From Ginglymostoma cirratum (lineage: Eukaryota), in assembly GCA_024137785.1 (NCBI GenBank), contig JAHRHZ010000043.1, forward strand, positions 31,834,813 through 31,898,812: a stretch of DNA of 64,000 bases, read 5' to 3'. Every line of letters starts with the position of its first letter. The stretch's first letter is position 1. The notes under the pieces were generated by a model. The model did no database searches, was not told where the DNA came from, and saw only the letters and a list, made by a program, of their open reading frames with translations. This document shows positions 9,780 through 49,029 of the stretch, piece by piece. Made by a program: the position numbers and the translations under genes.

Positions 9780-10115
9780 TAAATTAAAGGGTATTGGGGG
9801 TCTGTGGGAGTGCAAGGCTGAGGCCACAACTGGATCAGCCATGATCTCACTGAAAGGCAGAGCAGGCTTGAAGAACTGAACGGTCTACTTCTGTGATAAC
9901 AAGGTGTAGAGCGGGATGAACACAGCAGGCCAAGCAGCAACAGAGGAGCAGGAAAACTGACGTTTCTGGTCGAGACCTTGACCATCAGCTTTTCTGCTCC
10001 TCTGATGCTGCTTGGCCTGCTATGTTCTTCCAGCTCTACACCTTGTTATCTCAGATTCTCCAGCTTCTGCAGTTCCTACTAGCTCGGTCTACTTCTGTTC
10101 CTGATTTATATGTTC
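9780..10115 (+). mobile_element. CR1 3'UTR remnant split by a hairpin element
   Basis: ggatcagccatgatctcactgaaaggcagagcaggcttgaag. Confidence 0.65.
9895..10084. mobile_element. Penelope-terminus hairpin element with 14 bp TSD
   Basis: Inverted arms; cggtctacttctgt at 9881-9894 and 10085-10098. Confidence 0.85.
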
Positions 10116-10264
10116 ACTGTACAGTTGGACGGTATTTTCTCCTTCTCCATGCCAATCATCCCATGAGCTTTCTGATAGAGACTGTCAACTAGTGGGCCAT
10201 TCTGTACTTCAGTCACAATCCCCACAAAACTGATTTGTGTGAGGGCACATTGTAGCCACATGTT

Positions 10265-10438
10265 TTGAATATCAATCTACTTCATTATGAAAAGAATTTC
10301 TTTGCATTACAAAATAATATCTTAAAAAAAGTACTCGCTCATGATATTTTTACTTTCTACTTTCATCCTGCAGGTTCCCATCATTTATTTCACAATCAGT
10401 GTTGTAAAATTTAAACTCGAGAGCCCAAAGGAATCAGA
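10265..10438 (+). repeat. Local direct duplication, copy 1 (copy 2 at 12496-12670)
   Basis: ttgaatatcaatctacttcatt...cctgcaggttcc...gtgttgtaaaatttaaa...cccaaagg alignable over ~175 bp. Confidence 0.9.
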
Positions 10439-10680
10439 CTAAAAAGAAGTTGAATATAGATCTGAGAAATACTTGAATACTTTTAAAAAAGGAAAGAATT
10501 GTCAAGCCAAGGGGAAATCGCACCAATTGATTGGTTCTTTCAAAAATCTGATGCAAGACCAGGAGTTTCTCTGAGCTGTAAGGTTTTATGGTTCTATGAC
10601 ACAGCAGTTGCCATTAAGTGACCATTACAATCTCGACAGAACATAAAGGACGAAGTTTGGTTTTTCCATTTCAGAATGGC

Positions 10681-10890
10681 TGAGGGCTAGAGCAGAGCGG
10701 GTTGGAGGCTTGGGGTGGAGTTCACTGAGGGCCGGAGTGGAATGAGTTAGAGGCTGGGGGTGGAGTGCACTGAGGGCTGGAGCTGAGCGGATTGGAGGCT
10801 GAGGGTGGAGTGCACTAAGGGCCAGAGTGGAGTGGGTTGGAGGCTTGAGGTGGAGTGCACTGAGGGCTGGAGCAGAGCGGGTTGAAGGTA
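10681..10890 (+). repeat. G-rich 45 bp minisatellite, ~4.5 units, alternating A/B variants
   Basis: Unit ggttggaggcttggggtggagtgcactgagggc(cggagtggaatg or tggagcagagcg). Confidence 0.9.
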
Positions 10891-11260
10891 TGGAGCTAAG
10901 TGAGGATGGTTGTTGGACTTGGGTCTGGTGCAGGCGATCAGCAGCTTACGAGCCTGGACAGACCACATGAGGAAGCCCCTGCACTGATCAACTGCAAAGT
11001 AATGCTTACCTGAAATTTGTTTATCTGACTGTAATGTATATCCTTCTAACTATGTCTTGAAACTTATCCTATGAATCATTGTTAAGTTAATGGAACTATT
11101 TTTCTTCTTTATTCCTCTTTTTGTATGTAAGATTTGTACCAAGGTACTTAGTACCTAAGATGACACCATGAGAAGCAACATTGTAAACTTTTCATTGTCC
11201 TCCTGTACTTCTGTACTTGAGCACACGTGACAATAGAGCCTAATTCTAATTCCAAATTCT
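10681..11260 (+). mobile_element. Composite retroposon: VNTR head plus Rex1-like tail
   Basis: Shared 3' block ending cacgtgacaatagagcc(taattc)n. Confidence 0.65.
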
Positions 11261-12495
11261 TGTATTAATTGTCGCTACCTTAAAGCCCAACAACACAATC
11301 ATGTGAGTTGTCCTTAGAGGCATTGAATAAATAACACAAAAGAACTTTTTTATTTGAGAATGGTGCTTAATGTTGACTGAACTAAATGCCAAACCTGACT
11401 GTGATGGGTGTTTGGCTTGGTATCGTATTTAACCAGTCTCTAATTCCATTCCTTGCTTTGGCATAATTTTGAATCATTCACTTGTGAGAGAGGTGCTTAT
11501 ATCAGGCTTTCTTCATGCTGACAGATACGATTGAAGGTGACACATTCAGACAACTCATCAAATCCTGTTCCTATTGTGATTATTAAAAAATTCCAGACAC
11601 TTAAAAAGTTGAGGCAAAAATAAAACAAAAAGCCCAGACTCCTTACAGCAAATGTTAAGCACTATTCCGAAGCACGAGAAGGGCAGATACTCTTCAGACT
11701 TTGGAGAGTGAATATTATTCGCGAATCAAGGGTTTTCTTGGATCCTTGCCTGGAAATATCTTTCATCTTACGTTTTCTGACATCCTCTTTGCTTTCCAGG
11801 TGCAGCTGTATAATATAGTGTGTTACCGTGGCAACCCCAGAATGAATCGTGATTAGATTTGGCCGCCAACGTGGGGAGGCAGCTAGGACCCTGAGGGGGC
11901 AAGGAGTCACTTGATTCACTCAGCAGAGCCCCTAGTGCCCACATTGTCTATTTGCAGCAATGACGCCACTTGCCAGCATCCTGGGTCTAAGGACTTACAG
12001 TGGCAGTGTTGACAGATGGCATCTTTAATGGTGAATCAATTGAAAATGTCAAGACAAAGTCAAGGGTCCTTTTGCTGATCACTTACTGTAAAGAGCAGCC
12101 TGCTGTCATCAACAGTGTGTCGCTCAGCTTTGAGATTCCTCTTAAGGCTTTTACAATCAGAAAAAAAAAGGTCCAGGTCTTGCTGACATAGTAATGATGA
12201 AAAGGACAGCACGGACAATATTACTCTTCAGAAATCGACAAGCACACACCATTAAGCATGGGAACCAAGCGTGGCTGTCAGGGATTCTCCTTGTCTCCAG
12301 AGAGTACGCTGATGAAGGGCCCCAGACTGCAATCAAACAAATGAAAATTTCCATTCATAGTGTCTTAGACTTTCTGTAAAAACCTTTTAACAATGTATAT
12401 TAGGTGGCATGAGGTGCAGCTGGGTTTTTAATGGCATAATAAATTGATAATTATTGCTAAACAGCCATGCTGAACCTGAATACATTTTACGTTTC

Positions 12496-12670
12496 TTGAA
12501 TATCAATCTACTTCATTCTGAAAAGAAAATCTTTGCATTATAAAATAGTGCTCTTAAAAGAAAACATGTTCAGGATATTTTTACTTCCTACCTCATTCCT
12601 GCAGGTTCCTATTATTTATTTCACAGGCAGTGTTGTAAAATTTAAAGCTGAGAACCCAAAGGGATTCAGA
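12496..12670 (+). repeat. Local direct duplication, copy 2
   Basis: Aligns with 10265-10438. Confidence 0.9.
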
Positions 12671-13555
12671 TGTCATAATGCCCTGGTTTGTAGGATGACA
12701 AGACTATTTCAATGCCATTGACTGCCTGCACTGTTGAAAGGAGAAGTTCAGTAGATCTGCCAGCATCTGCGGAGGTTTCTTTTTGTTGTATCGGGCAAGG
12801 GACACCTGGAGACTGAGGAATGAAATGTGACTGTGAAGTTTTGGAAAATTCTAAGAGGAGAATAGAAAGCAATGAAGATGAAACAGGCCAAAAGATTAAA
12901 ATGGAAATCCCATCAGAGAGAAGAGCAGAACTTCTTCAGGGTGGGGAGATCTGGAACAGAAGTAGCAGTGAATTAAACACTCAAATAAAAGCAAAACACA
13001 GTGGATACTGCAAACCTGCGTTGCTACAGGTGTTGCCAGACCTGCAAGTTATTAACTAATCTGGGATGCACATAGGAATGGAGATAATTCAAATTTATTT
13101 ACATTGTTGATAACCATGGTTTCTTGGAGCTAATGTACCTGTACCTTAAAGGTTTAACAATGGATTTGCCAGATTTTCCTGTAGTTGCTGAGGGGTCTTT
13201 ATCCCCTGTTCTTTTTCACAGGCCTAGAGTTATCGTGCACACAATGGCAAGAAAGATTTGTGAGAATCAACCATTTCACAGAATGAAGAACCACGGGATT
13301 CAGATTTTCCCTTCTGTGCGTTTCGTCAGTTGAAAGAACCCGAAATACTAATGATCACGCCCAAGAAGTGAGAATGTGGCTACACAATAATTCCCCCAAT
13401 TAGAGTAAGCAACTCCTTCAAGCCTTGGCATCATGGCACACAACCAACCTAAATAAGGGTCATAAGAATCTTAAAATGGTTTAAATATTAAGACAGATTC
13501 CTATCAAGCATATTAGAATTGAAACAGAAGGATCTGGAAATAAAAAATGGGCCTT

Positions 13556-13912
13556 TTATTTATTCATTCATGGGATGAGGGCATCACTGGCTAGGCAGCA
13601 TTTATTACCCATCCCTAATTGCCCAGAAGGTAGTCAAGAGTCAATCACATTGCTGTGGGGGTAGAGTCATATGTAGGCCAAACCAGGTAAGGATAGCAGT
13701 TTCCTTCCCTAAAGGACATTGGTTAAACCAGGTGGGTTTTTCCTGACAATTGGCAATGGTTTCATAGTCATAGTTAGACTCTTAATTCCATATTTTTACT
13801 TAAATCAAATTTCACCACTTACCATGGCAGAATTTGAACCCGAGCCCCCAAAAGATTACCTGGGCCTCTGGATTAACAGTCTAATGATAATACCACGAGT
13901 GCATTACCTCCC
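13556..13912 (-). mobile_element. tRNA-derived SINE with L2/CR1-group LINE tail
   Basis: Tail ggcaattagggatgg..taaatgctgcctagccag shared with the LINE copies at 18350 and 27620; about 8 copies. Confidence 0.85.
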
Positions 13913-14298
13913 CTCTTTCAGCGTTGAAAACAAATGAGTAAATGTTTCACATTGCAATCTTTTTTTGTCAACTTTGTCTTTTCCCTCTTTCCAGTTTAAT
14001 TTGCAAGCCTTCCATTTTCAGTGTGCAATGGGCTGGTAAGAAAATCTGCTCCTATTAAAACATGTTAACATCTCAACTACTTTATTCTTTAAAACGCCCC
14101 ACCACTGAGACTCATGAAGAATAACTCTAAATTGGACAATCCCACACAAGAGAGATTTCTGGGTATGAGTTTGCTGAATTGAGTTGGGGTGTTATCCCAT
14201 GGACTACGTTTACTCCTTCTGGTTGCAACAGTAAAAACAGCTGGAGGTGCCAGTATTGATAAGATGCCCCAGATGGAAAATACATAGCTAAACTTTGA

Positions 14299-14502
14299 AA
14301 ACTGAAAGAACTGCGGTTGCTGTAAATCAGAGACAAAAATAGAAACTTCTGGAAAAGGTCAGCAGGCCTCGCAGCATCTGGAGAGAGAAATCAGAGTTAA
14401 CGTTTTGGGTTAAGTTGAAGGGTCACTCATCCAGAAACATTAACTCTGATTTCTCTCCACAGATGCTACCAACCCCAGCTTTTCCATCGATTTCTTTCTT
14501 CG
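14299..14502. mobile_element. Penelope-terminus hairpin element (second subfamily) with TSD
   Basis: gagagaaatcagagttaac..ttaactctgatttctctc inverted; tag(c/t)taaactttga at 14285-14298 and 14503-14516. Confidence 0.8.
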
Positions 14503-14690
14503 TAGTTAAACTTTGAGTTTGCTATCATGGCTCTCATTGGTGAATTGATCAGCGACAAACTGGTCACCCCTGAAATAAATGCTCGCTAAAATGACATACC
14601 AGAGGAAATGCACAACAAGTATCTCCAGTTTATATTGTGGAGTTTGGAAACGGAGCAGGAACTTGACAGGAAGGTTGGGAACCAATGTAT

Positions 14691-14790
14691 TTCTGAAGAA
14701 TGGTCCAGACCCGAAACATTAGCTTTCCTGCTCCTCTGATGCTGCTTGGCCTGCTGTGTTCATCCAGCTCTACACCTTGTTACCTCAGAT
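14691..14790 (+). mobile_element. Solo Penelope terminus with degenerate hammerhead
   Basis: CTGAAGAATGGTCCAGACCCGAAACATT followed by cctgctcctctgatgctgc. Confidence 0.8.
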
Positions 14791-14839
14791 GTGTATGTAT
14801 GGTTGAAGAAGGAGTGGAAGGATTAAAGAGTTTGTACGA

Positions 14840-15080
14840 TCTGCAAGATGCACTGCAGCAACTTGCCTAGGTTCTTCAACATCTCCCTGTAAAACTCTCA
14901 AACTGTATCCTTTGGATGGCCAATACCACCACCTCAATTTTATACCTATCTGATGTTGGACATATTGTGTAATTCATTCATCAATACAATGTCCAAAGCA
15001 GTTCGGCAAAAATACTATCTTCTCAAGAGCAGCAAATGATGGACAATAAATAGTGTCTGGTGAATGGTTTTATTAAGTCC
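14840..15080 (+). mobile_element. L2/CR1-group LINE 3' remnant
   Basis: atctgcaagatgcactgcagcaacttgcctagg (KMHCSN motif). Confidence 0.65.
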
Positions 15081-15146
15081 TAAAATATGCATTTTTTTTA
15101 AAATGGAGAGACATTCGATGGTGATTATGAAGATGAAGCCCATAAA

Positions 15147-15485
15147 GGGACAGTATGGTAACTCAGTGGTTAGCACTGCTGCCTCACAGTGCTAGGGACA
15201 CAGGCTCAATTCCATCCCAGGGCACCTATCTCCGTGGAGTTTGTATGTTCTCACCATATTTGCGTGAGTTTCCTCCAGGTGATCTGTTTTTCTCCCGCAG
15301 TCCAAAGATGTGCAGGTCAGGTGGATTGGCGATGCTAAATTGTCTATCTTTTCCAGGTATGTGCAAGCTGTGAGGATTAGCCATGGGAAATGCAAGGACA
15401 GGGTAGTGGGCGAGATCCTCTTCAGAGGGTTGGTGTGGACTTGATGAGTCAAATGGCTTGTTTTCAAACTGTAAGGGTTTTATGA
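15147..15485 (+). mobile_element. HE1-type V-SINE
   Basis: cagtggttagcactgctgcctcacag head, V-domain and tail. Confidence 0.92.
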
Positions 15486-16402
15486 AAAGCTCCTGGGGTT
15501 GGTTGATAAATGAGCTCAATAGTAAGATAGGGTGGAAGGACACACGTTAACAGTTGATACAATATAGTGTCACACCCTCTAGTGACTTCTATCCTCACAC
15601 TATTGATAAGAAGCCAGTGTAAATATACATTAAGTGGTATTTCCCTCGCATATACAATCTTGAACAGTTGTTTGGAGGAAATGTGAACAAAAATGGTGAG
15701 TGCTAATTGTGGTTCTGTTCAGTGTTCTTTGTGATTAATAAACCAACAGATCTTTTATGTGCTTGATATTTTTCCAAAAGCTTCAAACTTGCTATTTGGC
15801 ATGCCTTTGCTGTCGGCATCAATTTCACCTTGAGGAAGATTTAAACATATGAGCCATGTGATCAGCAAAATTCCTGCTCACAAATATTACTTCATTCTGG
15901 TCTGATGCCTCTTAAATTCAATACATTCTGATTGCTAAAAACCAAAGTAATTAGAATGTAGGTGTTCTGAACACGTTTTTACTTGGAATATTAAAGCTCA
16001 CTGTCTGCGACTCGCATATTTTATTTCTTTGAGAAGAGAAGATTGCTGTCAGCACAGTTCGAAGATCATTAGGTTTAAAGAGCAGATCACACGGCCACTC
16101 CCCTCAGTTGGCAGCGGCGTTAGGGGAATTCTGGAATAGGAAATGTTGGAAATTTCTTGGTTTTGATGGTATCTTGCTTTTACATCAGGGAAACCCCTGC
16201 CTCACTGAGCCTTTTTGTCTAAAAATCAAAGCAGAAAACATTCAGCTGATCAGTTGGCATTTGTGGAGAAACAGAGGTGATGCTTCAGGTCAATAATTTT
16301 CCATCAGAATTGGAAAAGGTTAGAACAGTGACAGTTTTTAAGCAGGTACAGAGCAGGAAGAAGGGGAAGGGAAACCTGTCTCAGGGTGGATGATAGGAGA
16401 GC

Positions 16403-17010
16403 TTCAAAGAACGAAGAAAGACCGAAGAACAATATCACACAGGAACAGGCCTTTTGACCCTCCAAACCTGCACCGACACAGGTAGATATAGTTTCGGGGT
16501 ACTGATGGGATCTATCCCAGAATATTGAGGGAGGCAAGAGAACAGATTGCTGGAGCATTGACAGATGTCTTTGTATTCTTTTTGGCCACAGGTGAGGTCC
16601 CAGAAGGCTGGAGAATAGGCAATGGCGTCCCATTGTTTAAGAAATGTAACAGGGATAATGCTGCAAATTACAGGTCTGTGAATCTCACGTCAGTGGTAAG
16701 GAAATTATTGGAAAACATTCTCAAGGACAAGATCTGTAAGCATTTAGAAGCAAATACACTTTTCACCAATGGACAGCATGGTTTTGTATGGCAGAGGTCG
16801 TGCCTCACTATCTTGATCGATTTCTTTGAGGAGGTAACAAAGTTGATTGATGAGAGAAAAGCAGTCGACATTGCCTCCATGGACTTCAGTAAAGCCTTTG
16901 ACAAAGGGCCCTCACAGCAGACTTCACAAAAGGTGAAGTCACATGGTGTAGTGGTGGGTTGGCAAGATGGATACATAACTGGCTTTGTCATAGGAGACAG
17001 ACAGTAACGG
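16403..17010 (+). mobile_element. CR1 LINE RT fragment (16480-17010) preceded by an inverted CR1 tail (16403-16478)
   Basis: ORF 16525..17007: VPLFKK..NYRSVNLTSVV..QHGF..SCLT..MDFSKAFD. Confidence 0.92.
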
Positions 17011-18612: not shown

Positions 18613-19312
18613 TCGTTAGTTTTGAAATAGGATGAAGAAGCTTTTCAAATTGAAATTGATTGTTCTCAGCTCACTTGCAAAAAAATTAATATTACAGTGG
18701 TAAGTCTGTTCGGATGCAACACATCTGGCAGATTTAAACATGCATTTATGTAGCTCCTTTCATAACTTCATTGTGTTTCAAAGCACTTTATAGCCGATCA
18801 TGTTTGTAAATGGAAAATACGGAAGGTAAGAAATTCAGTTGTATAGGTCACCTCCAGTAGCATCATAGACTCTGTGTGTGCCAGAGGATATTTGATTAGT
18901 GTTAACCTATGCTACATCTCTAAACCAGCTGATGTGATTCCATGTTGCAAAACTTATCAATGGATGTTCAGGTCATATCTTCATTGTCCAATCATTTTAA
19001 AAGAAGCATAAAGCTGCTTGATGACCCTGCAGCAGCATTAACAGGCCAACTTCCTTGAATTCAGTTAAGTTACAAATGTGAAACTTTGTCGACACAATAC
19101 AATCTGCCTGACAGGATACAGACATGTTTTTGGCTGCTGTTTGGCAAGTTCCTACACTTTCCAGAGAATGCAGTCACGTTCACACAGACACGATCAAAGA
19201 GTAGGAGTCCTGTAGACTCTATGGGTGCAAACAGCAGCATTGAAAGTGCCTCTGGCTTCATAGCCCCACAGCATGGTAGCGGAGAAGATGCAAAGACAGC
19301 AGGATCAGTCTT

Positions 19313-20262
19313 AGATAACAAGCATGGGGCTGGATGAACACAGCAGGTCAAGCAGCATCATAGGAGCAGGAAAACTTGACGTTTCGGGCCTAAACCCTTC
19401 ATCAGAAATGGGGGAGGGGAAGAGGGTTCTGAAATAAATAGGGAGAGAGGGGGAGGCAGATAGAGGATGGATAGAGGAGAGGATAGGTAGAGAGGAGGCA
19501 GACAAGTAGAAGAGGCGGGGATGGAGCCAGTAAAGGTGAGTGTAGGTAGGGGGGNNNNNNNNNNNNNNNNNNNNNNNNNNNNNNNNNNNNNNNNNNNNNN
19601 NNNNNNNNNNNNNNNNNNNNNNNNNNNNNNNNNNNNNNNNNNNNNNNNNNNNNNGTGCTGTTCCTGCAGCCTTCGGGTGGCATCACTGTGGCATTGCAGG
19701 AGGCCCAGGATGGACATGTCATCTGAGGAATGGGAGGGGGAGTTGAAATGGTTCACGACTGGGAGGTGCAGTTGTTTGTTGCGAACTGAGCGCAGGTGTT
19801 CTGCAAAGCGGTCCCCAAGCCTCCGCTTGGTTTCCCCGATGTAGAGGAAGCCACAACGGGTACAGCGGATGCAGTACACCACATTGGCAGATGTGCAGGT
19901 GAACATCTGCCTGATGTGGAAAGTCTTCTTGGGGCCTGGGATTGGGGTGAGGGAGGAGGTGTGGGGGCAGGTGTAGCACTTCCTGCGGTTACAAGGAAAA
20001 GTGCCGGGTGTGGTGGGGCTGGAGGGGAGTGTGGAGCGGACAAGGGAGTCGCGGAGGGAGTGGTTCCTCCGGAAGGCAGATAAGGGTGGGGAGGGAAAAA
20101 TGTCTTTGGTGGTGGGGTCTGATTGCAGATGGCGGAAGTGTCGGAGGATGATGCGTTGGATCCGGAGGTTGGTGGGGTGGTATGTGAGGACGAGGGGGAT
20201 TCTTTTTTGGTTATTGTTGCGGGGACGGGACGTGAGGGATGTGTTCCGGCAAATGCAGGAGA
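19313..20262 (-). mobile_element. Penelope-like retroelement, 5'-truncated (GIY-YIG endonuclease plus terminal repeat); 100-N gap inside
   Basis: ORF 19358..20479: RIPLVLTYHP, CNRRKCYTC, FTCTSANVVYCIRCTRCGFLYIGETKRRLGDRFAEH; no stop in the sequenced part. Confidence 0.95.
19378..19405 (-). ncRNA. Minimal hammerhead ribozyme motif (Penelope-associated)
   Basis: CUGAUGA-A-GGG UUUAGG CCC-GAAA-CG-UC. Confidence 0.7.
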
Positions 20263-20839
20263 CAATATGTCTTCTGTCAAGTTGTAGCTGGACTTTTCTG
20301 TGCTCTTTGGCAGTGACTGGAAGTTGACTGGTAGGCCATCGATGCATCCAGCACTGTGGTGTGTGCGGCCTTTCAATGGTGACCTGTATTCGACAGTGCC
20401 CTGCCAACTCCTCATCTGAGTTATTTTCAGAAGTATTTGTCTGTCCCCAACCCTCCAGGGAGCTGAAAAAAACAACCAAAGTTTACGACAAGTCTGGCTG
20501 CAGCCTACACCTACCACCTGACTCAGAATGTGCTGGTCCCAACTCCACATTAGCCTCCAAGTGAAGTGCCTGAGCTAGTGGCTGTGAGCATCATGTCAAG
20601 TGATTGGGCCTGTTCATTAGTAGGTTCTTACACCTGGGGCTGCTTTGGCTAAAGACAGGAACTCTTCAGTGACATGGTGTGAGCAAAGTGGGTTACAGTG
20701 TAAAGCAAAAGTCTCCTGGTGACACAATCTGCAACTTGCTCGTCATGCCAGATCACAGGATACACATTCACTGAGAATCGAGAAGAGGCATTAGTCAGGA
20801 ACTTCTTGTCCTCCTCAATGTTCCCAGATGCCCCTCACC

Positions 20840-22811: not shown

Positions 22812-22995
22812 GCAAACAAAAAACAGAAATTGTTGGAGAAACTCAGCAGATCTGGTAGCATGTGTGAAGAGAGAAACTGAGTTAATGTTTCATGTGCAGC
22901 GACTCTTCTTCAGAACAGATGCTGCCAGACCCGCTGAGTTTCTCCAGCAATTCCTTTTTGGTTTCAGATTTCCAGCATCCAAAATTCTTTGTTCA
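22812..22995. mobile_element. Penelope-terminus hairpin element
   Basis: ttgttggagaaactcagc..gctgagtttctccagcaa inverted arms. Confidence 0.75.
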
Positions 22996-23440: not shown

Positions 23441-23736
23441 TGTCACTCTGCACGTAATCTTATCATCTTTTACAAATAGAGAGGGCCCACTGGGTCTCAT
23501 TGTAATTTGGATTGCAGTGATTGGACCTCTGACAATGCAGCACTCAGTCGATGTTGGACTGGAGTCTCTGAGGTTTCTGGTTGTGGAGATAGTAAAAGAA
23601 AGGCAGGTTAAAGGAGGTAAGGAGTTGCATGATATGAGAGATAGTAGGACCTGCAGATGCTGGAGAATCTGAGACAACAAGGTGCAGAGCTGGACGAGCA
23701 CAGCAGGCCAAGCAGCATCAGAGGAGCAGGAAGGCT

Positions 23737-23764
23737 GACGTTTCGGGCCTAGACCCTTCTTCAG
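23737..23764 (-). ncRNA. Minimal hammerhead ribozyme motif
   Basis: CUGAAGA-A-GGGUCUAGGCCC-GAAACGUC. Confidence 0.7.
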
Positions 23765-24204
23765 AAAATNNNNNNNNNNNNNNNNNNNNNNNNNNNNNNN
23801 NNNNNNNNNNNNNNNNNNNNNNNNNNNNNNNNNNNNNNNNNNNNNNNNNNNNNNNNNNNNNNNNNNNNNNNNNNNNNNNNNNNNNNNNNNNNNNNNNNNN
23901 NNNNNNNNNNNNNNNNNNNNNNNNNNNNNNNNNNNNNNNNNNNNNNNNNNNNNNNNNNNNNNNNNNNNNNNNNNNNNNNNNNNNNNNNNNNNNNNNNNNN
24001 NNNNNNNNNNNNNNNNNNNNNNNNNNNNNNNNNNNNNNNNNNNNNNNNNNNNNNNNNNNNNNNNNNNNNNNNNNNNNNNNNNNNNNNNNNNNNNNNNNNN
24101 NNNNNNNNNNNNNNNNNNNNNNNNNNNNNNNNNNNNNNNNNNNNNNNNNNNNNNNNNNNNNNNNNNNNNTTTCGGGCCTAGACCCTTCTTCAGAAAATCA
24201 TTTT

Positions 24205-24232
24205 CTGAAGAAGGGTCTAGGCCCGAAACGTC
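24205..24232 (+). ncRNA. Minimal hammerhead ribozyme motif
   Basis: CTGAAGA-A-GGGTCTAGGCCC-GAAACGTC. Confidence 0.7.
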
Positions 24233-25319
24233 AGCCTTCCTGCTCCTCTGATGCTGCTTCGCCTGCTGTGCTCGTCCAGCTCTGCACCTTGTTGCATGAT
24301 ATGAGATACTGATTAGCTCGATCGAAGAGTATGATCAATCTTCAAGATGATGAGGCTGCACAAAGTAGAAGGAGTTTGTGTTTAGGCTTACAAGTGGAGC
24401 AAAGTTCAGAAGATCAATGACTATTCTAGTGCTGATAGAATAGAGGTAAAAAAGCATTGTGATGGAGAGGGAGAGGCTAGAAGCTAGAGGTAACGAAAAT
24501 CATCTATCAAGCTAACTAATCTCATTAGTCCTATATTAATGATGAGGAATAACAACAAGCTTCACTTCATTATAAAACTGCATGTAAATGTTCATGTACT
24601 TTAAAAAAAATATTGATTAGATTGTTGCCTACTGTCAGAACTAAGTTGCCTGCTGATATGTCAAGTCAAATTACTTGGATAATCCCATTGCATGATTTAT
24701 GAGGATGCATCTTATTGCCATTACATTAAGAAAATGCACAAAATTACTCAATAAAATGTGACAAAATTACAATAACCGAGCCTCTAGAAAAAAAAACAAT
24801 GATCTGGCGCCTCTATGTAAATAGGGCCAATGCATCACCATGCCAACAGACATGGTTCGGTGCTCGATAATGACTCATTTGAAATTGCATGTAATTTAGT
24901 TACATTTTAACATCTCATAATTAACATTCATGGAGGTCTCCCAGGTTAAATAAATTATGTAGAGGGCAAAATAGGAAGGAAAAGAATCCAAAAGCAGAAA
25001 GAACTATATTGGCAAAGAGGAGAACCTTTATTAAAACAAAGTCTACATTTTTTAAATATAGATTTTACACATGGAATTTTTATGTGCCTGTTAATCTTAA
25101 TGTTTAGATTTTGAAGAGTACAAAACTGCTGGTGGAAATTATTTGCTTGGATTTCTTCAGAATTTCATTCGATTGCTTGTTGTAACTTCCCTGGAGAAAA
25201 AGCATGCTAAGTGTTTATTACAGTTGAGTGCATAGAGTTTCTGACCAAGTTATGGTGGAGGACTGTGAGCAGCTCCTGGAACATCTCCACCATCCCCTGA
25301 CATCCAAGAAATTCAGCTA

Positions 25320-30339: not shown

Positions 30340-30800
30340 AAGACTTGCATTTCTTTTAGCCTTTCACAACCTTGAGACCCCAAGTTGCATTCCAGCCAAT
30401 GAAGTCCTTCTGAAGAGAACCTACTGTTGCAGTTTAAAAGATACATGTACACAAGGTCCTATGAATAGCAACAAGATATTAACCAGTTTATCTGTTTGCC
30501 ACGAGACAGCAAGAACTGCAGATGCTGGAGCCAGAGATAACAGTGTTGAGCGAGAGGAACACACCAGGCCAGGCAGCAGAGGAGCAGGAAAGTTGACGTC
30601 AACTTCCTTGTTCCTCTGATGTTGCCTGGCCTGCTGTGTTCCTCCAGCTCCACACTACGTTATATCTGTTTGCTGTGTTGTTTGAGGCACCAAAGAGAAT
30701 TCCCTCACCATTCTTCAGCCTGGATCCTATGAGTTGACACCTGAAATGAGGTGTCAACCAGTTTACTCCAGAGTAAGTTATGCTACTGCAGAGCCATGCC
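30340..30800 (-). mobile_element. Old Deu-domain SINE split by a hairpin element
   Basis: gacttgcattt..agcctttcacaacctt tail; SINE resumes after 30673. Confidence 0.55.
30500..30662. mobile_element. Penelope-terminus hairpin element with 11 bp TSD
   Basis: Centre ggaaagttgacgtcaacttcc; tatctgtttgc at 30489-30499 and 30663-30673. Confidence 0.85.
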
Positions 30801-32074: not shown

Positions 32075-32512
32075 TGCCAGTCAGAAACTCAAGGAGCAGC
32101 ACCTCATTCTGCCTTCGCAGCCTACGACCCAACGCTCTAAATATGGACTTCATTTCAAAATCTCCCCACCCCTGGCCTCATCCCATGACCAACTCTCCCT
32201 CTCATCCCTGCCTCCTTGACCTGACACAACCTGTTCATCTTCTCTCCCACCTAACCGCCCCTCCCACCTCACTGACCAATCCCCACCACTCCCTACCTGC
32301 ATTCACCTACCACCATCCTGCCTATCTTTCCCAACCCCACCCCTCCTCTCTGATTATTTCCCTTTTCCCTTCCCCCTCCCATTTCTGAAGAAGGGTCCAG
32401 ACCCGAAACGTCAACTTTCCTGTTCCTCTGATGCTGCCTGGCCTGCTGTGTTCCTCCAGCTCCACACTGTGTTATCTCTGACTCCAGCATCGGCAGTTCT
32501 TACTATCTCTGA
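32075..32512 (+). mobile_element. Penelope 3' fragment with terminal repeat and TSD
   Basis: ggagcagcacctcattc..acccaacg; gtgatggggt(g/a)gca at 32058-32071 and 32513-32526. Confidence 0.88.
32385..32412 (+). ncRNA. Minimal hammerhead ribozyme motif
   Basis: CTGAAGA-A-GGGT CCAG ACCC-GAAA-CG-TC with a perfect stem II. Confidence 0.72.
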
Positions 32513-32959
32513 GTGATGGGGTAGCAGTAGTTTTCCAGTCAGAATTGTGTGCTTGGAGGAGAACCTGTAGATGGCACTGCTCCAGTTATCATCTGCCCTG
32601 TTCTAAGTTGGAGAGATCACAGGTTTGGAAGGCGCTGTTAAAGGAGCATTTGTGAGTTGTTACAATGCATCTTGCATATAGTACACACTGAGACCAAACT
32701 GTGTCTGTCAATGATGGAGGAAATGAATGTTTAAGATGGCGACTTGTCCTAGATGGTATTAAGCTTTTTGAATGTTGTTGGAACTGCCTTCATTTCAGGC
32801 AAGTGGAGAGTACTCCTTATAATCCTGAACTATTCCTTGTGAGGTGAGTTATTTACTGCAGAATTCCCAGACTCTCTTTCGCCCCCAATATTCTTCAGAT
32901 TACTAATTGCTCCCTTTTTCTTTCAACCAGTGGAAAACTTGAACTGCTTGTCGTAGTCT

Positions 32960-34455
32960 CAGAGATCGCAAGAACTGCAGATGCTGGAGTCAGACACAAC
33001 ACAGTAGGCAGTTAGAGGATCACAGCAGGCCAGGCAGCATCAGAGGAGCAGACAAGTTGATGTTTACGGTCAAGATCCTTCTTCAGAAATGGGGAGGGGG
33101 AAGGGAGCTGGGAAATAGAGAGGGGAGGGGTGGGGCTGGGGAAGGTAGGTGGGATGGTGATAGGTGAATGCAGGTGGGGATTGGTCAGTGAGGTGGGTGG
33201 GGTGGATAGCTGGGAGAGAAGATGGACAGGTTGTGTCAGGTCAAGGAGGCAGGGATGAGAGGGAGAGTTGGTCATGGGATGAGGTTGGGGATGGGGAGAT
33301 TTTAAAACTGGTGAATTCCATGTTTAGGCCATTGGGCTGTAGGCTGCCAAGGTGGAATATGAGATGCTGCTCCTCCAGTTTGTGGGTGGTGTCGTTGTGA
33401 CACTGGAGGAGGCCCAGGATGGACATGTCACACAGGGAGTGGGAAGGGGAGTTAAACTGGTTGGTGACTGGAAGGTGTTATTGTTTGTTGTATACAGAGT
33501 ACAGACGCTCTACAAAATGGCCTCCAAGTCTATGCTTGGTCTCACCGATGTAGAAGAGGCCACATCAGGAGCAGCGATGCAATAGACCACATTGACGGAT
33601 GCGCACGTGAACCTTTGTCTAATGTGGAAGGTTTGTTTTGTGCCTTGAATGGAGGTGAGGCGGGAGGTGTAGGGGCAGGTGTAGCACTTCCTGCGGTTGC
33701 TGGGAAATGTGGCGGGGTTCATGGGGAGTGTTGAGCAGGTGAGGGAGTCACGGAGAGAGTGGTCTCTACAAAAGGCAGATCAAGGTGAGGAGGGAAATAT
33801 CTCTTTGGTTGTGTGGTTGGGTGGTTGGTGGTGGAAGTGGCGGAGAATGATACATTGGATGAGGAGGTTGGTGGAGTGATATGTGAAGACAAGGGGTATT
33901 CTGTCTTTATTTTTGTTGGGAGGAGGGGTTGTGAGGGCAGGAATGCAGGAAATGCAAGAGATGCGGTTGAGGGCATTTTCAATCACCACAGGGGGAAGTT
34001 GCGGTCCTTGAAATAGGAAAACATCTGGGATGTGTGGGAGTGGAAAACCCCATCGTGGGAGCAGATGCGGGAGGAATTGTGAGTATGGGATCATATTCTT
34101 GAGGAAGGTGGGTGAGAGGAGGTGTAGTTCAGGTAGCTGTGGGAGTCGGTGGGCTTGAAATAGATGTCAGTTTTGAGGCGGTCAACAGAATTGGAGACGG
34201 AGAGCTCCAAGAAGGGGAGCGATGTACTGGAGATGGTCCAGGTGAATTTGAGGTTGGAGTGAAACGTTTTAGTAAAGTTGATGAACTGTTCAACCTCCTC
34301 ATGGGAGCACAAGGCAGTGCCGATACAGTCATCGACGTTGAGGAGGAAGAGATGGGGTGTAGTGCCAGTGTAACAGTGGAAAAGGATTGTTCCACGTATC
34401 CTAGGAAGAGACAGGCATAGCTTGGTCTTATGTGGGTGCCCATGGCCACCCCTGA
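32960..34455 (-). mobile_element. Penelope-like retroelement, 5'-truncated (RT C-half plus GIY-YIG), frameshifted
   Basis: GVAMGTHIRPSYACLFLGYVEQS; LKFTWTISSTSLPFL; TDIYFKPTDSHSYL; RIPLVFTYH; FTCASVNVVYCI. Confidence 0.95.
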
Positions 34456-37592: not shown

Positions 37593-37659
37593 AATGGGCC
37601 ACAATGAAACCAGGTCCCCAATATGGCACAGGACAGTGATTTTGGGCAGTCTCACCTAA

Positions 37660-39432: not shown

Positions 39433-39435
<3 letters not shown>

Positions 39436-40495: not shown

Positions 40496-40559
40496 GATTA
40501 CCGATTCTGCTCAATTCCCCAATACATCTGCAGTTAGCAATTGTCAATGTAATTAACGA

Positions 40560-41070: not shown

Positions 41071-43089
41071 ATCCCTGCTCTGAAATTGCAACCAGTCCAC
41101 AAATCCTCTTCTTGTATACTTTTTTCCTGATTCAGGTGCTGAGTGCCTTCGAACGAGTAACGACCGCTACTACCAGGAGGCAACTTGGCGATTATCCACA
41201 CTACTGCTAATTGAATACCAGTGATGTCGGGATAAGGCCCTTAAGTGGGCATGCATTGCATTAAAGGCCACAATTGGAAGAAGTGCAGGAATGTCAGTCA
41301 CAAACATTTGTGAATTAATCACAGCAGAAATGCTAAGGTGGCAGGACCCGAGTGAACACCTCTGTTCAAATTAAATGCCTCACACCACCAAGCACATCTC
41401 ATGATGGACAAGTAATAAATCCCAACGAGAGCGATCAAGTCATGTCTTTGTGTAAACACATACATATGGAATTTACAAAACCCTTACATGAACAAATAAC
41501 ACACACATATTTCACTGTGTCTGGATGAGAGCGTATTCCCAATATCAATGCACCCCATTAAGTTTGGTTCTCTTAACCAGGAGCCTAAGAGGTTCTTTTA
41601 GCACAGTGTTAATGTTTGTATCTCTGAGTAAGGTGAATATTGTTTCCACTCCAGCATCTGCAGTACCTTTTATCTCTGATACAATTGTTTAGGTACTGCC
41701 AGCTCCAGTGGTGTGTAATAACATCTCTCAACAGGCCGGTTGGATAATATATGAACCAGGACCCTTAAAAATAATTGCATAGTGAAAATTACATTGAAGG
41801 GATTAACTTGGTCCTAAAATGTTAGTACTAACAGCAATCCTGACTTCCTAACAAAAGTTAGGGTAAAATCGACCACAATTCACAAACTTGACATGTGTGA
41901 TTCATGGTGCAGATTTGTGAGCAGTTATATTTTAACCACACAAAATAATAGTTTTAGAGTTTCATCTGTTCTTTTAACAGTCTCCTTTCATTTGATATTG
42001 TGAAGAATGAACCTTTCTTATCAATAATCTATTTTTCTATTACCCTCTTGTCCCTTCCTAATGTACATTGCAATTGTCTACAGCTGACTTGCTTGTAACT
42101 CATGGTCCATACTGCTTTTGATTTGTTTGTGTCCTCAGGAGTTGTATCGAAATGAAGAAAAGGGGATTCATGTACCTATCAGTCTTATCCCTTACAATGC
42201 ACCTAATGTAAGTAGGTGACAGCTGTGCCCAATGACCCTTACAATAAGGGATTATGGATGATGGCATTAAAATATGCCCGTCGGCCATACATTCTGCTTC
42301 CTGCATTCCATCTCCTTTCCCCTTTGGCAGGTCAATGATAATTACTTGCAATGCTACTCAGCGTGCAGCAGGTAACATAATACGCACTGACATCTTGAGG
42401 GTTGCATTATATTCAACTTCTTGCGATAGCTAACAAATGTAATCTTCTTTTTAAATCTCCCCATTTCGTAATTTTTGACAGAGAGCACCCTGATCATACG
42501 AGAATCCAACTTTCTGACCCAGAATCCGATTGAACAGCTTGGTAAAATATTGGATTAAAGTTGTCATGTTAAAGTGCTGATTGAATTGCCACTTGGCATT
42601 GACAAGTGAAGGGGATGGACACGGGGCTAAGCCTTGACCTTTGAGTTCCTACTCTCCTGATGCAGAAAGGTTTCAGTTAAAGTCCTGAGGCTGCTGTGCA
42701 AGTCATAGGGTCTGTGCTGGTTGCTTGGATGCCCTCAGAGTGGTCAAGGAACAGTAAATGTCTGAACTCTTGAAGTTGAGAAATTGAAAGCAGTTTTCTT
42801 CAGGATAGGCCTACTTACAGGAGACCAAAAGGATTACCTGCATGAAGTCTCAGAGGAGGGGTATATCTTAGCATACATTCTTCAATAGTGATCAAGAGCT
42901 AGAGTTTCTTGGTAGCAGTAGAACTAGCAAGTATCTGAGATTCATCAGGCAGCCAAATTTTCTCATGCAACTGAGATGCTTTCCCACAGAAGCTCTCCGT
43001 GGTTATTGTACCTGAAGGTGTTGGTTATGCATTTGACGTGAAGTACAGCCATAGAACCATAGACACCCAGAAGCCCTTTCTAATCCCAT

Positions 43090-43562
43090 CTTGGAGTCAG
43101 GTACAATTATGTCAATTAAAGGCATCTGGATGGTTACATGAATAGGAAGGGTTTAGAGGAATGTGGGCCAAATGCTGGCAAATAGGATTAGATCAATTTG
43201 GGATATCTGATCAACATGGATGAGTTGGGCCAAGGGGTCTGTTTCTGTGCTGTATAACTCGATGGCTCTATGACTTCCTTGTGCACGGCCCATAGTCCTG
43301 CAGCTTACACACTTAATATGCAGATCCAGGAACATTTTAAGAGAGTTTAGGGTCTCTGCCTCCATCACAAACTCAGGCAAAGCATTCCAGACACCCACCA
43401 CCCTCTGCGAAATAAAAGTTTTTCCTCACATTCCTTTTAATCCTTTTGCCATTTTAGCTTGAACCTATGACCCCTGGTTTCTAAACTGTATCCCTCAGTC
43501 ATGTCACGTTTCAGCCTTCTCTGTTCCTAGGAAAACAACTCCAATCTCCCCAATCTCTCCAA
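43090..43562. mobile_element. Two CR1 3' fragments in opposite orientation (plus 43090-43275, minus 43276-43562)
   Basis: CR1 tail gggtctgtttctgtgctgtataactc; ORF VGVWNALPEFVMEA. Confidence 0.8.
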
Positions 43563-43579
43563 ATAAGCTCGGTGGGTGG

Positions 43580-44252
43580 GGGAGGTGATGATCTAGTGAT
43601 TATTATCATTGGACTGTTAATCCTGAGACTCAGATAATGCTCTTGGGAACTGGGTTTGAAATCTACCACAGCAGATGGTGGAGTTTGAACTCAATAAAAA
43701 TAATCTGAAATTAAGAATCTGATGATGAAACCATTGTCATAGACTGCCTACAGTGTGGAAACAGGCCCTTTGTCCCAACAAGTCCACACCTAACCTCAGA
43801 GAATTCCACCCAGACCCATTCCCCGATCTATATGTCCCTGAACACGATAGGCAATTTAGCATGGCCAATCTACCTAACCTGCACATCTTTGGACTCTGGG
43901 ATGAAATCAGATCACCCAGAGGAAACCCACACAGACGTGGGGAGAATATGCAAACTCCACAGACAGTTGTTTGAGGGTAGGCTTGAACCTGGGTCCCTGG
44001 TGCTGTGAGGCTGCATTGCTAACCACTGAGCCACCGTTCTGCCCAGGCCAATTAAAGATCGTTGAAAAAAACCATCTGCTTCACTAATGACCTTTAGGGA
44101 ATAAAACTGCCATCTTTACCTGGTCTGGACTATGTGTGACTCCAGATCCACAACAATGTGGTTGATTCTTAACTGCCTTCTGGGCAATTAGGCATAGGTA
44201 ATAAATACTGGCCTAGCCACTAATACCCTCATCTTGTGAATCAATTAAAAAA
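43580..44252 (+). mobile_element. tRNA-derived SINE with LINE tail, interrupted by HE1
   Basis: Head 43580-43736, tail 44050-44252. Confidence 0.85.
43737..44044 (-). mobile_element. HE1-type V-SINE (nested)
   Basis: V-domain and tRNA head. Confidence 0.9.
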
Positions 44253-44899
44253 ATGCTACTATCTGTAGCCCTGGCAACAATGTCTGTCCCCTCTTATTAA
44301 ATATTTTTCCAGTTGTCCAGTAGCCATTTAATAGCATCTTTCCCTTTCTGTTTCTTATCCTACAGCACGCTATAGTCGTAATAAAACAGCATGCCTGCCA
44401 GTAACTTGCAGGGTGCTGTGGAAGGAACAGAAGTGTTTACTTGAGTCAATCGGTGTGGAGAGTGGAGCCTGCTGTAACAGGCCTGATTGTGTTGAGACAG
44501 TAACCAGCATGGTGGATTAATGACATGCTCTGTAGCCCAGGCTGTAACTTGTAACGTGCTCAATCACTGAACCAGCTGTTCTGTTTTCTCCCAACAACCC
44601 CCCATCCGAATATTGGAATAAAAAGAAGAAAAGATCAGACTTATTCCCCTAACCCATCCCCTCCCCCAAACTCAACAGCAAAGCAAATAGATTTTGAAAC
44701 ATATAGTTTCTTGGCCATTTTCCTCAAGCCATGATGATTAAAAAAATGGAAACTTACTTCTACTGTTCCACATTAATAATAGCAGCCTATGTAGAAATAG
44801 CGCTTTTCATGTAAGAACATCCAAAGGTAAATTCTTAGAAATGTAACTCTTGTTCTTCCTAGGCAGCTCCTGAGGATTGAAAATTACTCACTTCTACTT

Positions 44900-45220
44900 A
44901 AACTCCCTACAGTGTGGAAGCATGCGATTTGGCCCATCAAGACAGCACTGACCCTCCAAATCCACCCCGTCACTACAACCCAGCATTTCCCATGGCTAAC
45001 CCACACATCCCTGAACACACTGGGCAATTTAGCATGGCCAATCCACTTAACCTGCACATCTTCAGACTGTGGGAGGAAACTGGAGCACACAGAGGAAACC
45101 CACACAGACACAGGGGAGAACATACAGACTTCACACAGGCAGTTGCCCAAAGCTGGAATCAAACCTAGGTCCCTGGCACTGTGAGGCAGCAGTGTTAACC
45201 ACTGAGCCATCCTGCTGCTC
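44900..45220 (-). mobile_element. HE1-type V-SINE
   Basis: V-domain and tRNA head. Confidence 0.92.
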
Positions 45221-45984
45221 CAGTTCAGTTTGTTGGATTCAGAGGTGATTGATGGGTCTAATGCATGATTTTGTCACTCTGCCATGTGCAGACCAGAGAG
45301 TTGGAGGTTCAAGTAGATGAGATAGTTAGACATTGTATGCTCTTCCTGATGCCTGAACTTTGCCTCTCAAAGTGTTCAGTTCCTTCCTGTGAGGTTTCTC
45401 CATTTGGTTGGTCACATGCCAGGGTCTTCTTGGAGTCAACAGGTTTGATTGACCTTCTTATCTTATGTCTCACAGCCAGTACGCAATATACCTTTAGGTG
45501 ATGTGCTCATGATAACATCACTTGAGATCATAGCCATGTCATGTCACATGACCTGATGGTATAAAGGTCTCAGACTCCATCTTCCTGGGAACACAGACAG
45601 CATGACACACAATAGTTTGTATCTGCGCACTAGACCAGTCAAAACAGTAACTGTAGCATATGTAGACACCAGGAGACGGTTTAAAAGTCAACTGAAAATC
45701 CAAATTATATAATCCACACCTAGTTCTTATGTTATGGGAGCTAATGTAAGCATTGCCTCATTAAAGGACAAACACCCTGTTGAAGATGAAAGGACACTCA
45801 TTATACCTACAGGGGATTTTGAGGACAGATCAGATCAGCCCTCTTCAGGAAAGCTTGATGGACATTATTAATATTTGATGCTGAACCACACAGAACATAT
45901 TAGAGAGGACGACCCAGGGCTTGGTCAAAGACACAGGTTTTAACAAGGAAAGCTGGACAGGTCTGGCTATTCATTCTTCCCAAC

Positions 45985-46580
45985 TATAAGACATCCCAAA
46001 GGACATTACATTTAAAATATGGCCACTGTTTCAATGTAGGAAATGCAGCAGCCAATTTCTGCACAGTAAGATTCCATAAACAGTAACATGATAGTCACCA
46101 GATAATCATTGTTTTTTAATTCATTCATGGGATGAAGCCAGCATTTATTGCCCATCCCTAATTGCCCAGAGAGCGGGTAATAGTCAATCACGTAGCTGTA
46201 GGCCTGGGGTCACATGAAGGCCAAACAAGGTAAGAATGGAAGTTTCCTTCCCTGAAGGACATTAATGGCCCAAGATGGGGATTTTTTGAACAGTCGACAA
46301 TGAATTCATGGCCATCAGGAATCATGAATTTATGATGTTGATTGAGGGATAAATGTTGGCCAGGGATAACTTTATTATTCTCTTTCAAATCATGTCATAG
46401 GATCCTTAATTCCACCTGAGACAGAAGATGGGGCCTCAATTTAACATGGGGCCTGAAAGATAGCACAGCACTCCCCCAGTGCTAGACTGTGCAGTCAACC
46501 ACAAGTGTTGTGCTCAAAGTCTGGTGTGCTACATGGAATCACAAACCTCTTACTCAGAGATTGGAGAGCTACAGCTGCAA
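45985..46580 (-). mobile_element. Deu-domain SINE split by a nested SINE (46112-46325)
   Basis: gttgattgagggataaatgttggccaggga..ccacctgagacagaagatggggcctc. Confidence 0.7.
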
Positions 46581-46689
46581 AATGTAGGGAAGGAATTGTG
46601 GAGCTTAGGGCTTTGATAACCAATAAAAAAGTAACAAATGGTGGACCAATTTAAATCAAAGATAGAATCATCAGAACCCGAAAACTTAG

Positions 46690-47200
46690 AACAAATAAAG
46701 AACAGAATGAGGCCATTTAGCGCATAAAGCCTCTGCTGGCCTTCTGGATGTGTCTCACTCCGTCACTCTTTTCCTGCATAGTTTTCCTTCATGTGCTTAT
46801 CTAATTCCCTTTTAAAAGCCATAAATAAATATTGTCTCCATTACATTCTGAGGCAGTGCATTCCAGATTCTAACCAGTCGCTGCACAAAACAACATTACT
46901 CCATGTCACCCTTGGTTGTTTTGCCAACAATTTTACATATACATCGTCTGGTTCTCAGTTCTCCTGCCAATGGAAATGACATTTCTCTACCTACTCAGTC
47001 TCAGCTATCGGGATTTTGAAAACTTCTTTTGAATCTTCACTCAATTTTAGATTTATAAGAGCAGTAGCCAAACCTTTCCACTCTACCCATGTAATTGAAG
47101 TCTGTCATCCTTGAAAGCATTCACTCCAATCATTTCTGCACTTTCTAAGACCTTCAACTCCTTTCCAAAATGCAGTACACAGAACAGAATATAATGAGCG
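46690..47200 (-). mobile_element. Old CR1 3' fragment
   Basis: ggcagtgcattccagattctaaccagtcgctgc. Confidence 0.65.
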
Positions 47201-47805
47201 GAAACTTGTCCAGCCCAAAATGACTGGGTACATGTGAAATGTGCAGCAAGGCCTTTCTGACTTCATCTGGGACTTGGACACAAGGTTCCTACCAGTGAGC
47301 AATGAGGAGGTGAAAGATTAGTGAAGGTATGCAGGTAGTCAGATCAGCCATGATCTTATGGAATGACGGAGCAGGTTTGAAGGGCCTACTCTCGTTCCTT
47401 GTTCATGTGTTCATACTTTGCATCTCTATCTCATCATTTAGTGCTCCATCTTAGACAGCTGGCACCAATATCTCAGGGCACATACCATGGGCGGCAGCCT
47501 CGCACAGCAGACATCCATGGATGTTGGCATCTGACACGTGCCTAGCCTAAGCTCACTCGTGTGGCACATTTCTGATCCACCTACAGTGCAAGTCTGCCCT
47601 TCAGTGCTGCACTTTGGAACACACTGGCAAACCTTCCTTGGAATGCTGCTGAAAGGACACTTCCTGGGGAATTCAGGGATAGGCACCCAGCTCAAGGACT
47701 AGACCAGTGCACATCTCAGGGGTCCTCATTTGCTCTTTTAGTGCACACTCACCTGGCGCCCGTGGTGATCCTCACAGCATCGCTGCCTTGCTTGGTGTTT
47801 CGGTG

Positions 47806-48552
47806 AGTCATGGAGTCATAGAGTCGTACAGCACAGAAACAGAACCTTTAGTCCAACTTGTCCTTGCCAACCAGATTTCCCAAACTAAACTAATCCCATT
47901 TACCTGTGTTTGGCCCATATCCCTCTAAACCTTTCCTATCCATCCACCTGTCCAAATGTCTTTTATATATTATAACTGTGCCTGCATCTACCACTTCCTC
48001 TGGAAGTTCATTCCACATAGATACTACCCTCTGTGTGAAAAAGTTGCCCCTCAGGTCCCTTTTAAAACTTTCTCCTCTCGCATTAAACCTCACTTCACCT
48101 GACAAAGGGGCAGCATTCAGAAAACTTGTGATTTCAAATAAACCTGCTGGACTATAACCTAGTGTCATGTGACTTCTGACCTTATCCACCTAATCAAAGA
48201 CTGGTAGCTCCACATCTTAAACCTTTAGTATTGAACTCCCCTACCCTAGGGAAAAGACCTTTGTTATTCACCTTATCTCCGCCCTTCATGATTTTATAAA
48301 CCTCTATAAGTTCACCCCTCACCCTCCTACACTCCAGGGGAAAGAAATCCCAGCGTATCCAGCCTCTCTTTATAACTCAACCCTCCACTCTCGGTAACAT
48401 CTGCACACTTTCCACTTTAATAACTTCTTTCCTATAGCAGGATGACCAGAACTGTATGCAGTAATCCAGAAATGATCTCACTACTGTCCTGTGTAGCTGC
48501 AACATGACATGCCAACTCCTATGCTCAATGTTCTGACCAATGAAGGCAAAGG
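47806..48552 (-). mobile_element. CR1 LINE 3' portion with nested Penelope terminus
   Basis: FKRDLRGNFFTQRVVSMWNELPEEVV. Confidence 0.92.
48091..48216 (+). mobile_element. Terminus of a different Penelope family with degenerate hammerhead
   Basis: cctgacaaaggggcagcattcagaaaacttgtg..aataaacctgctggactataacc; flanked by a ttaaacct duplication. Confidence 0.65.
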
Positions 48553-48609
48553 CCCCCAGTACTTCTGTCTTATCTTGCTTTTTAGTGCAGTCATAAAGCC
48601 AGGAAGCTT

Positions 48610-48789
48610 AGAGATTGAACAAAGAGTGGAGCCAGAGGAACAAAGCAGGCCAAGCAGCATGAGAGGAACATGAAAGCTGACGTTTCAGGTCAGGACCTTT
48701 CTTCAGAATTTTTTCCTGAAGAAGGGTTCTGACCCAAAGCATCAGCTTTCATGCTGTTATCTCTGACTCCAGCATCTGCAGTTCTTGCT
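48610..48789. mobile_element. Penelope-terminus hairpin element with two inverted hammerhead cores and 14 bp TSD
   Basis: cttcagaattttttcctgaag centre; aagccaggaagctt at 48596-48609 and 48790-48803. Confidence 0.87.
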
Positions 48790-49029
48790 AAGCCAGGAAG
48801 CTTGTCATGTTTGTCAGTAGCTGTCAGTTAAGGGGATGGACATATTGCTGTACAGTAATGTATAATATCAGTCTCACACTTACACCATGTGTGTGTTTCA
48901 AACAAATAGTCATGTCTCAAATTCTAAGGTCCTGAATAAACTTCAGGGAAATAGCCTGCAGTTAAGGAAACCTGGCCCAGTAAAGCAACGGCAGCATCCA
49001 CGATCTGTCCAGACGCTTGAACATCGTCA

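Follow-up and report, generated by a model that had tools for sequence, protein, structure and literature searches.

The locus considered here raises the question of how short hairpins that carry two ends of a retroelement and no open reading frame (ORF) come to be inserted in a genome. The window, a stretch of 64,000 nucleotides of Ginglymostoma cirratum contig JAHRHZ010000043.1, holds six of them, at positions 9881, 14285, 22812, 23624, 30489 and 48596. An initial annotation had offered two explanations, a non-autonomous retrozyme-like element whose RNA could cleave itself in either orientation or a product that arises repeatedly when both ends of a staggered GIY-YIG cut are primed. Our analysis favors the latter: each hairpin consists of two head-to-head 3' termini of a Penelope-like element (PLE) within a 12-16-bp target-site duplication (TSD), and was likely formed de novo by two-strand priming at one staggered cut. 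Unique centers, a one-tail asymmetry and 14-15-bp TSDs argue for formation afresh each time, as do the gradation from hairpins to long inverted PLE insertions and the mixed-subfamily arms of some hairpins.

Inverted PLE termini form the arms of all six window hairpins and belong to two terminus families, A at 9881, 23624, 30489 and 48596 and B at 14285 and 22812. The five TSDs that the initial annotation had listed were all recovered (Table 1), and the element at 22812, for which it had reported none, has no credible one, its best repeat being only 10 bp with 2 mismatches. Hairpins are 160-230 bases in size; the range of about 170-250 bp given earlier does not describe the copy at 23624 as assembled, which measures 651 bp because it includes a gap of 400 N and an overlap of 29 bp that is present twice, and whose real size would be ~220 bp. 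The arms are unequal, with a ~35-bp tail on exactly one arm in 6/6 window copies. At 30489 the two arms share a short palindromic overlap.

The asymmetry of the outer ends is not confined to the window. With the C of CTGANGA numbered +1, an arm has its outer end near +94 or, if tailed, near +128, two positions separated by 35 nt. Among 111 family A hairpins, pooled from selected and unselected loci, 94 carry a tail on one arm, 4 on both and 13 on neither, compared to 55, 23 and 32 expected if the arms were independent (p = 1e-13); the 65 unselected ones divide into 53, 2 and 10, respectively (p = 1e-7). A TSD of at least 10 bp flanks 67/111, with a mode of 14-15 bp. In a set of 50 loci, of which 40 were parsed and 10 were not, repeats of 12-16 bp were found at 24 of the 40 parsed hairpins, versus repeats of at least 10 bp in 0/150 chimeric flank pairs. 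From its first base, the TSD agrees with the continuation of the RNA over a mean of 1.87 nt at tailed ends (n = 61) and 1.44 nt at untailed ends (n = 59), against a chance level of ~0.7 nt, so that there is an excess at both outer ends (p < 0.001). Three long inverted insertions (L224, L229 and L230) combine a tailed main copy with an untailed inverted copy inside TSDs of 17, 13 and 14 bp, and a continuum between such insertions and the ORF-less hairpins is supported. In the family A terminus, a short motif in which AGA or TGA comes after TATCTC is repeated at both end sites (about +88..+97 and about +123..+132) at a spacing of 35 nt, and is a candidate RT (reverse transcriptase) start signal. 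The stem that spans the tail folds weakly (-5.6 kcal/mol).

The initial annotation had taken variable hairpin centers as a sign of independent formation, and tabulation of the centers bears this out. We found 39 distinct centers among the first 50 intact-core hairpins listed, with a few short ones seen 2-3 times, and 92 among 97 ungapped family A junctions. The recurring centers are minimal joins; L045 and L169, for example, have an identical center and belong to different subfamilies. Many centers hold short overlaps or templated AGGG/ACCC pieces.

The inner ends have a preferred position. In unselected family A arms, 75/173 inner ends lie at -6..+4, family B behaves alike, and the same pile-up appears in 42/99 solo family A stubs. 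Of 30 copies that read past the tail into the 5' part of the ORF, 9 start at -6..+5 and just 4 reach further upstream. Judging by motif consensus, we take an A at -3 to be Inr-like (initiator-like) and a box lying 31 nt (family A) or 29 nt (family B) above it to be TATA-like; the upstream sequence differs between the families. The -3 site would accordingly be the putative transcription start of the element RNA. The pile-up may also come from stalling of the RT at an upstream pyrimidine tract. Ribozyme cleavage was considered as the source of the inner ends and rejected, since there is no clear peak at +28/+29, presumably the hammerhead cut according to the consensus: the 5 nt from +27 to +31 hold 7/173 inner ends, versus about 1 per nt around them.

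The arms are the ends of two GIY-YIG PLE families. A GIY-YIG endonuclease (EN) remnant at 19655-20482 in the window (Pfam PF01541, E = 4.4e-5) has a family A terminus directly 3' to it, and a family A terminus stands at the end of 20/20 long copies selected by RT (8 tailed, 11 untailed and 1 shorter). For family B, tblastn placed related endonuclease coding sequence upstream of the stubs in L160, L131 and L076. No full-length element was found among the 20 RT-selected loci or 30 read-through loci, and Pfam returned only a weak RVT_1 match (E = 0.015) on four long open frames, three of which are probably the non-coding frame. A CxxxxCxxC cysteine cluster precedes the endonuclease and, by a criterion in PMC8557442, suggests the Neptune or Nematis clade. 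In 204 exact matches the sequence runs on beyond the tail into the apparent 5' region of an ORF, with an ATG near +170, and the terminus is therefore also the 5' leader of the element RNA, as described for other PLEs (PMC3846280; PMC11167929). Two older family A-like PLE 3' ends lie tail to tail at 32077-33389 in the window, around 444 bp of unrelated DNA, and the right-hand one runs on into EN and RT remnants to about 34570. At two further loci, G000:C111:17385915 (L199) and G000:C277:2320333, RT matches fall in unusually long open frames of 5316 and 2101 aa, which are perhaps caused by runs of N.

Arms of the same hairpin mostly share subfamily alleles, 62/827 sites (7.5%) being discordant versus 33% between hairpins. 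Four of the 42 classifiable hairpins have mixed-subfamily arms, two of them at three linked sites and two at two sites, where random pairing of arms would give about 10; three of the four (L153, L184 and L188) are bounded by TSDs. The arms therefore mostly have a single source, and in some cases at least they would go back to two RNAs (or to conversion).

From these end positions, TSDs and junctions we infer a cut, an order of priming and a joining step. A GIY-YIG/RT protein, probably a dimer, would nick both strands 14-15 nt apart and leave 3' overhangs. Each 3' end would pair with 1-3 nt of RNA and prime complementary DNA (cDNA), with the distal site (+128) used by one end and the proximal site (+94) by its partner. 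If priming takes place on the copy of the terminal repeat at the mRNA 5' end, both cDNAs would be about 100-130 nt long when they run off at the transcript start, whereupon host repair would trim the two cDNA ends, join them through microhomology or short templated inserts, and fill in the rest. Solo stubs would arise by the same reaction with one arm lost, and long inverted insertions with one arm long. The hammerhead is likely a passenger at the start of the element RNA, and the hairpin a dead end. A second class of mini-insertion, found at L238, L240, L243, L245, L251, L253 and others among L236-L265, has a terminus, a tail and 25-700 bp of the ORF 5' region followed by another short terminus in direct orientation; its structure resembles what would result if run-off were succeeded by a switch of template to the 5' part of an RNA, giving partial tandems without an RT body.

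A broader proposition is that PLE integration is obligately two-ended and asymmetric, with a dimer, a 14-15-nt stagger, one start site per strand and sometimes two RNAs, and with the ~1e5 hairpins as strong-stop run-off products at the element's own transcription start. We consider the chances of this to be even. Such a rule, if true, would explain tails, inverted pseudo-long terminal repeats (pLTRs), solo hammerhead stubs and partial tandems.

The main competitor to two-strand priming is snap-back, in which target-primed cDNA would reach the RNA 5' end, fold, copy itself as the second arm and jump to the other target end. An antisense-template form of it has been put forward to account for the palindromic inverted junctions of rotifer Penelope elements (PMC3846280). 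The usual agreement of the arms in subfamily fits snap-back, as do private variants common to both arms in L189 and L194, the short overlaps and templated pieces in many centers, and the untailed arm being shortened in 24/94 one-tail hairpins. It leaves the stop of the second arm at about +94 unexplained, however, and +94 is also a primary end of TSD-bearing solo stubs and of 11/20 long copies; nor can it yield the mixed-subfamily arms. We therefore regard snap-back as unlikely to be the general route, and it may be responsible for some copies. Several points do weigh against two-strand priming. Shared arm alleles are predicted equally by snap-back copying, mixed arms could partly reflect gene conversion, and the junction sequence cannot tell intramolecular snap-back from joined identical cDNAs. 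No TSD is detectable in 44/111 family A hairpins. The putative start at -3 is placed by motifs and end positions, and a cap-derived extra G was not demonstrable in the 100 of 2,226 matches listed, counted by eye (G 29, A 48, T 23), where partner arms or TSD overlap account for many of the bases.

The other explanation in the initial annotation, a retrozyme cleaving itself in either orientation, is not borne out: the cores are predicted to be paired and are mostly lost, and the inner ends do not cluster at the cleavage site. By pattern, the terminal repeat contains a minimal hammerhead motif, CTGANGA..GAAAC-GTC, which makes it a predicted ribozyme; an Rfam scan of the window gave no hammerhead match. 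Two intact CTGANGA..GAAAC cores, which had been described for the best copies, are present at 23624 and in no other window copy; there is one motif match each at 48596 and 22812 and none at 9881, 14285 and 30489. No strand has more than one minimal hammerhead in the sense direction, the motifs being inverted and not direct repeats. The antisense arm precedes the sense core and pairs with it on either strand, and in the five folds that contained the motif the core has a predicted unpaired probability of 0.00; plant retrozyme RNAs are likewise predicted to be blocked (PMC7229834). There are no direct or tandem ribozyme repeats and no propagation as a unit, and the core is predicted not to be free to fold, all of which sets the hairpins outside the retrozymes. 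Two other labels were tried and set aside. Miniature inverted-repeat transposable elements (MITEs) have equal terminal inverted repeats, a fixed short TSD and a uniform family sequence; here the arms differ by ~35 bp, the TSD is 11-17 bp and the centers vary. Rfam matches to microRNA precursors fell far below the gathering score and were taken as generic hairpins.

A non-autonomous unit, retrozyme-like or MITE-like, that propagates as a hairpin with its RNA processed by the ribozyme would fit the high copy number, the modal size of about 220-235 bp, the intact cores of young copies and the few centers that recur. The recurring centers, however, are minimal joins that occur in more than one subfamily, nearly all junctions are distinct, the core is paired in the predicted folds and ends do not pile up at the cut site. 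Furthermore, a single minimal hammerhead failed to cleave in vitro (PMC4209133), and animal retrozymes are built as direct tandem repeats, with ribozymes of canonical type (PMC7229834). We thus consider a propagating unit highly improbable. We give just as little credence to the hairpins having begun as long inverted PLE insertions that subsequently lost their middles through cruciform-driven recombination. Such insertions do exist, and diverged copies lose their cores more often, but later deletion would not set both inner ends at one -3 site in two families, solo stubs show the same pile-up without a cruciform, very young copies are already short, and the site of a relative wholly lacks the 23624 copy.

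The last point comes from orthologous sequence. At the 23624 site, one orthologous contig per run (X1, X4 and X13, from two related organisms) aligns as far as 23639, where the left TSD ends, and runs for >1 kb beyond it without a hairpin arm; the X10 contig ends at 23610 and is uninformative there. Contigs of the relatives do enter the arms of the element at 22812, which is older and whose arms are also present in two relatives. The young 23624 copy is therefore lineage-specific, and the empty site in the relatives would have a single TSD copy.

Genome-wide, a strict pattern found 1,164 back-to-back exact cores and its control pattern 0. We counted 65 hairpins and 184 solo arms in about 0.95 Mb of unselected sequence, N excluded, that was made up of systematic stretches, neighbors of the window, the window itself and off-center parts of fetched loci. 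The density of ~68 hairpins/Mb extrapolates to the order of 1e5 in the genome, half of the systematic sample being N. Young, near-perfect hairpins often coincide with gaps of 100 or 400 N (window 23770-24169, L007, L009, L070, L091, L174 and L194), and the youngest copies are therefore probably undercounted.

Other repeats in the window include an inverted pair of ~540 bp at 52049-53495, 72-91% complementary, around ~370 bp. It gave no match to PLE protein queries or termini, no TSD was found for it, and it is possibly another foldback or a DNA-transposon relic. Long interspersed nuclear element (LINE)-type reverse-transcriptase remnants lie at 16492-17007, 49725-50783 and 4640-5344; by their motifs we take these to be CR1-like and RTE-like.

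Table 1. Hairpin arms, target-site duplications and related PLE features in the window
Feature	Position	Strand	Remarks
Solo family B stub with tail	441..577	+	no TSD found
Element 1 left TSD copy	9881..9894	.	14 bp, exact match to 10085-10098
Element 1 family A untailed arm	9895..9977	-	+92 to about +10, core truncated
Element 1 family A tailed arm	9985..10084	+	about +27 to +126, core truncated
Element 1 right TSD copy	10085..10098	.	
Element 2 left TSD copy	14285..14298	.	14 bp, 1 mismatch
Element 2 family B tailed arm	14299..14410	-	+131 to about +19
Element 2 family B untailed arm	14417..14502	+	+6 to about +95
Element 2 right TSD copy	14503..14516	.	
Solo family A stub	14689..14790	+	-3 to about +98, no TSD found
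Parent-type fragment	19309..20482	-	GIY-YIG endonuclease remnant, 3' region, untailed family A terminus (core 19381-19405)
22812 element, family B untailed arm	22815..22915	-	degenerate core
22812 element, family B tailed arm	22915..22990	+	about +45 to +125
Element 4 left TSD copy	23624..23639	.	16 bp, exact
Element 4 family A tailed arm	23640..23769	-	intact minimal-hammerhead motif 23740-23764
400-N gap and 29-bp repeat of left-arm end	23770..24198	.	probable assembly artefact
Element 4 family A untailed arm	24200..24290	+	intact minimal-hammerhead motif 24205-24229
Element 4 right TSD copy	24291..24306	.	
Element 5 left TSD copy	30489..30499	.	11 bp, exact
Element 5 family A tailed arm	30500..30599	-	+127 to +24
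Element 5 family A untailed arm	30596..30662	+	+24 to about +90
Element 5 right TSD copy	30663..30673	.	
Element 6 left TSD copy	48596..48609	.	14 bp, exact
Element 6 family A untailed arm	48610..48708	-	core motif 48682-48706
Element 6 family A tailed arm	48712..48789	+	degenerate core, internal deletion
Element 6 right TSD copy	48790..48803	.	

In LINE-1 twin priming, the second target strand primes on the RNA and an inversion results inside the TSD. The inverted segment there is a non-overlapping upstream one, whereas the two hairpin arms copy the same RNA segment. The inverted copy, the one-sided tail and the TSD have already been published for PLEs, and the hairpins are not a new element class; what they add is mechanistic detail on PLE insertion. 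We found no ORF-less two-terminus PLE hairpins and no strict one-tail rule in the literature searched, a search that did not extend to subscription journals, Repbase/Dfam or supplements such as Fig. S2 of PMC11167929, which bears on tail ends. The closest counterparts are the complex insertions of endonuclease-bearing (EN+) PLEs such as Pen2a_Av, in which an inverted, 5'-truncated copy stands head to head with the main copy, with a 30-40-bp tail at one end, a TSD and TATA/Inr-like motifs in the pLTR (PMC3846280; PMC8557442). Unlike these, the hairpin copies are cut down to the terminal 100-130 bp and have no ORF, their TSD is 14-15 bp instead of 8-10, their copy number is of the order of 1e5 (extrapolated), and the one-tail rule is quantified.

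The minimal core in the terminal repeat is the same as that of other metazoan PLEs, and in Schistosoma dual hammerhead motifs occur 100-700 bp apart on opposite strands (PMC4209133); the available text of that paper describes no TSD-bounded hairpin units, tails or junctions for the dual motifs. Like the retrozymes, both the plant LTR type (PMC4918200) and the animal non-LTR type (PMC7229834), the hairpins are small, non-coding, hammerhead-bearing and flanked by TSDs. Retrozyme ribozymes, however, are direct repeats that release a monomer or circular RNA, whereas those of the hairpins are minimal and inverted, have often been deleted, and by prediction would be sequestered. The mass of lone minimal hammerheads in the genome is explained as stubs, and caution is warranted against annotating hairpins as MITEs, microRNA precursors or retrozymes.

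The origin of tandem and inverted PLE structures has been named as unresolved (PMC8557442; PMC11167929), and the hairpins of this genome, as a very large collection of minimal products of insertion, make exact predictions that can be put to an in vitro system. These concern the length of the stagger, the use of one start site on each strand, a short pairing between target and RNA, and run-off where the transcript begins. Such a system exists in the purified anole PLE protein, Poseidon PAc, a predicted dimer that nicks and extends both strands, for which two internal RT start sites bound the tail and ribozyme cleavage is dispensable (PMC11167929). In the portion of that paper available, the assay showed neither a start site that differed between the strands nor homology to the target; in the genomic hairpins, by contrast, the asymmetry is strict, microhomology extends over 1-3 nt and the stagger is defined.

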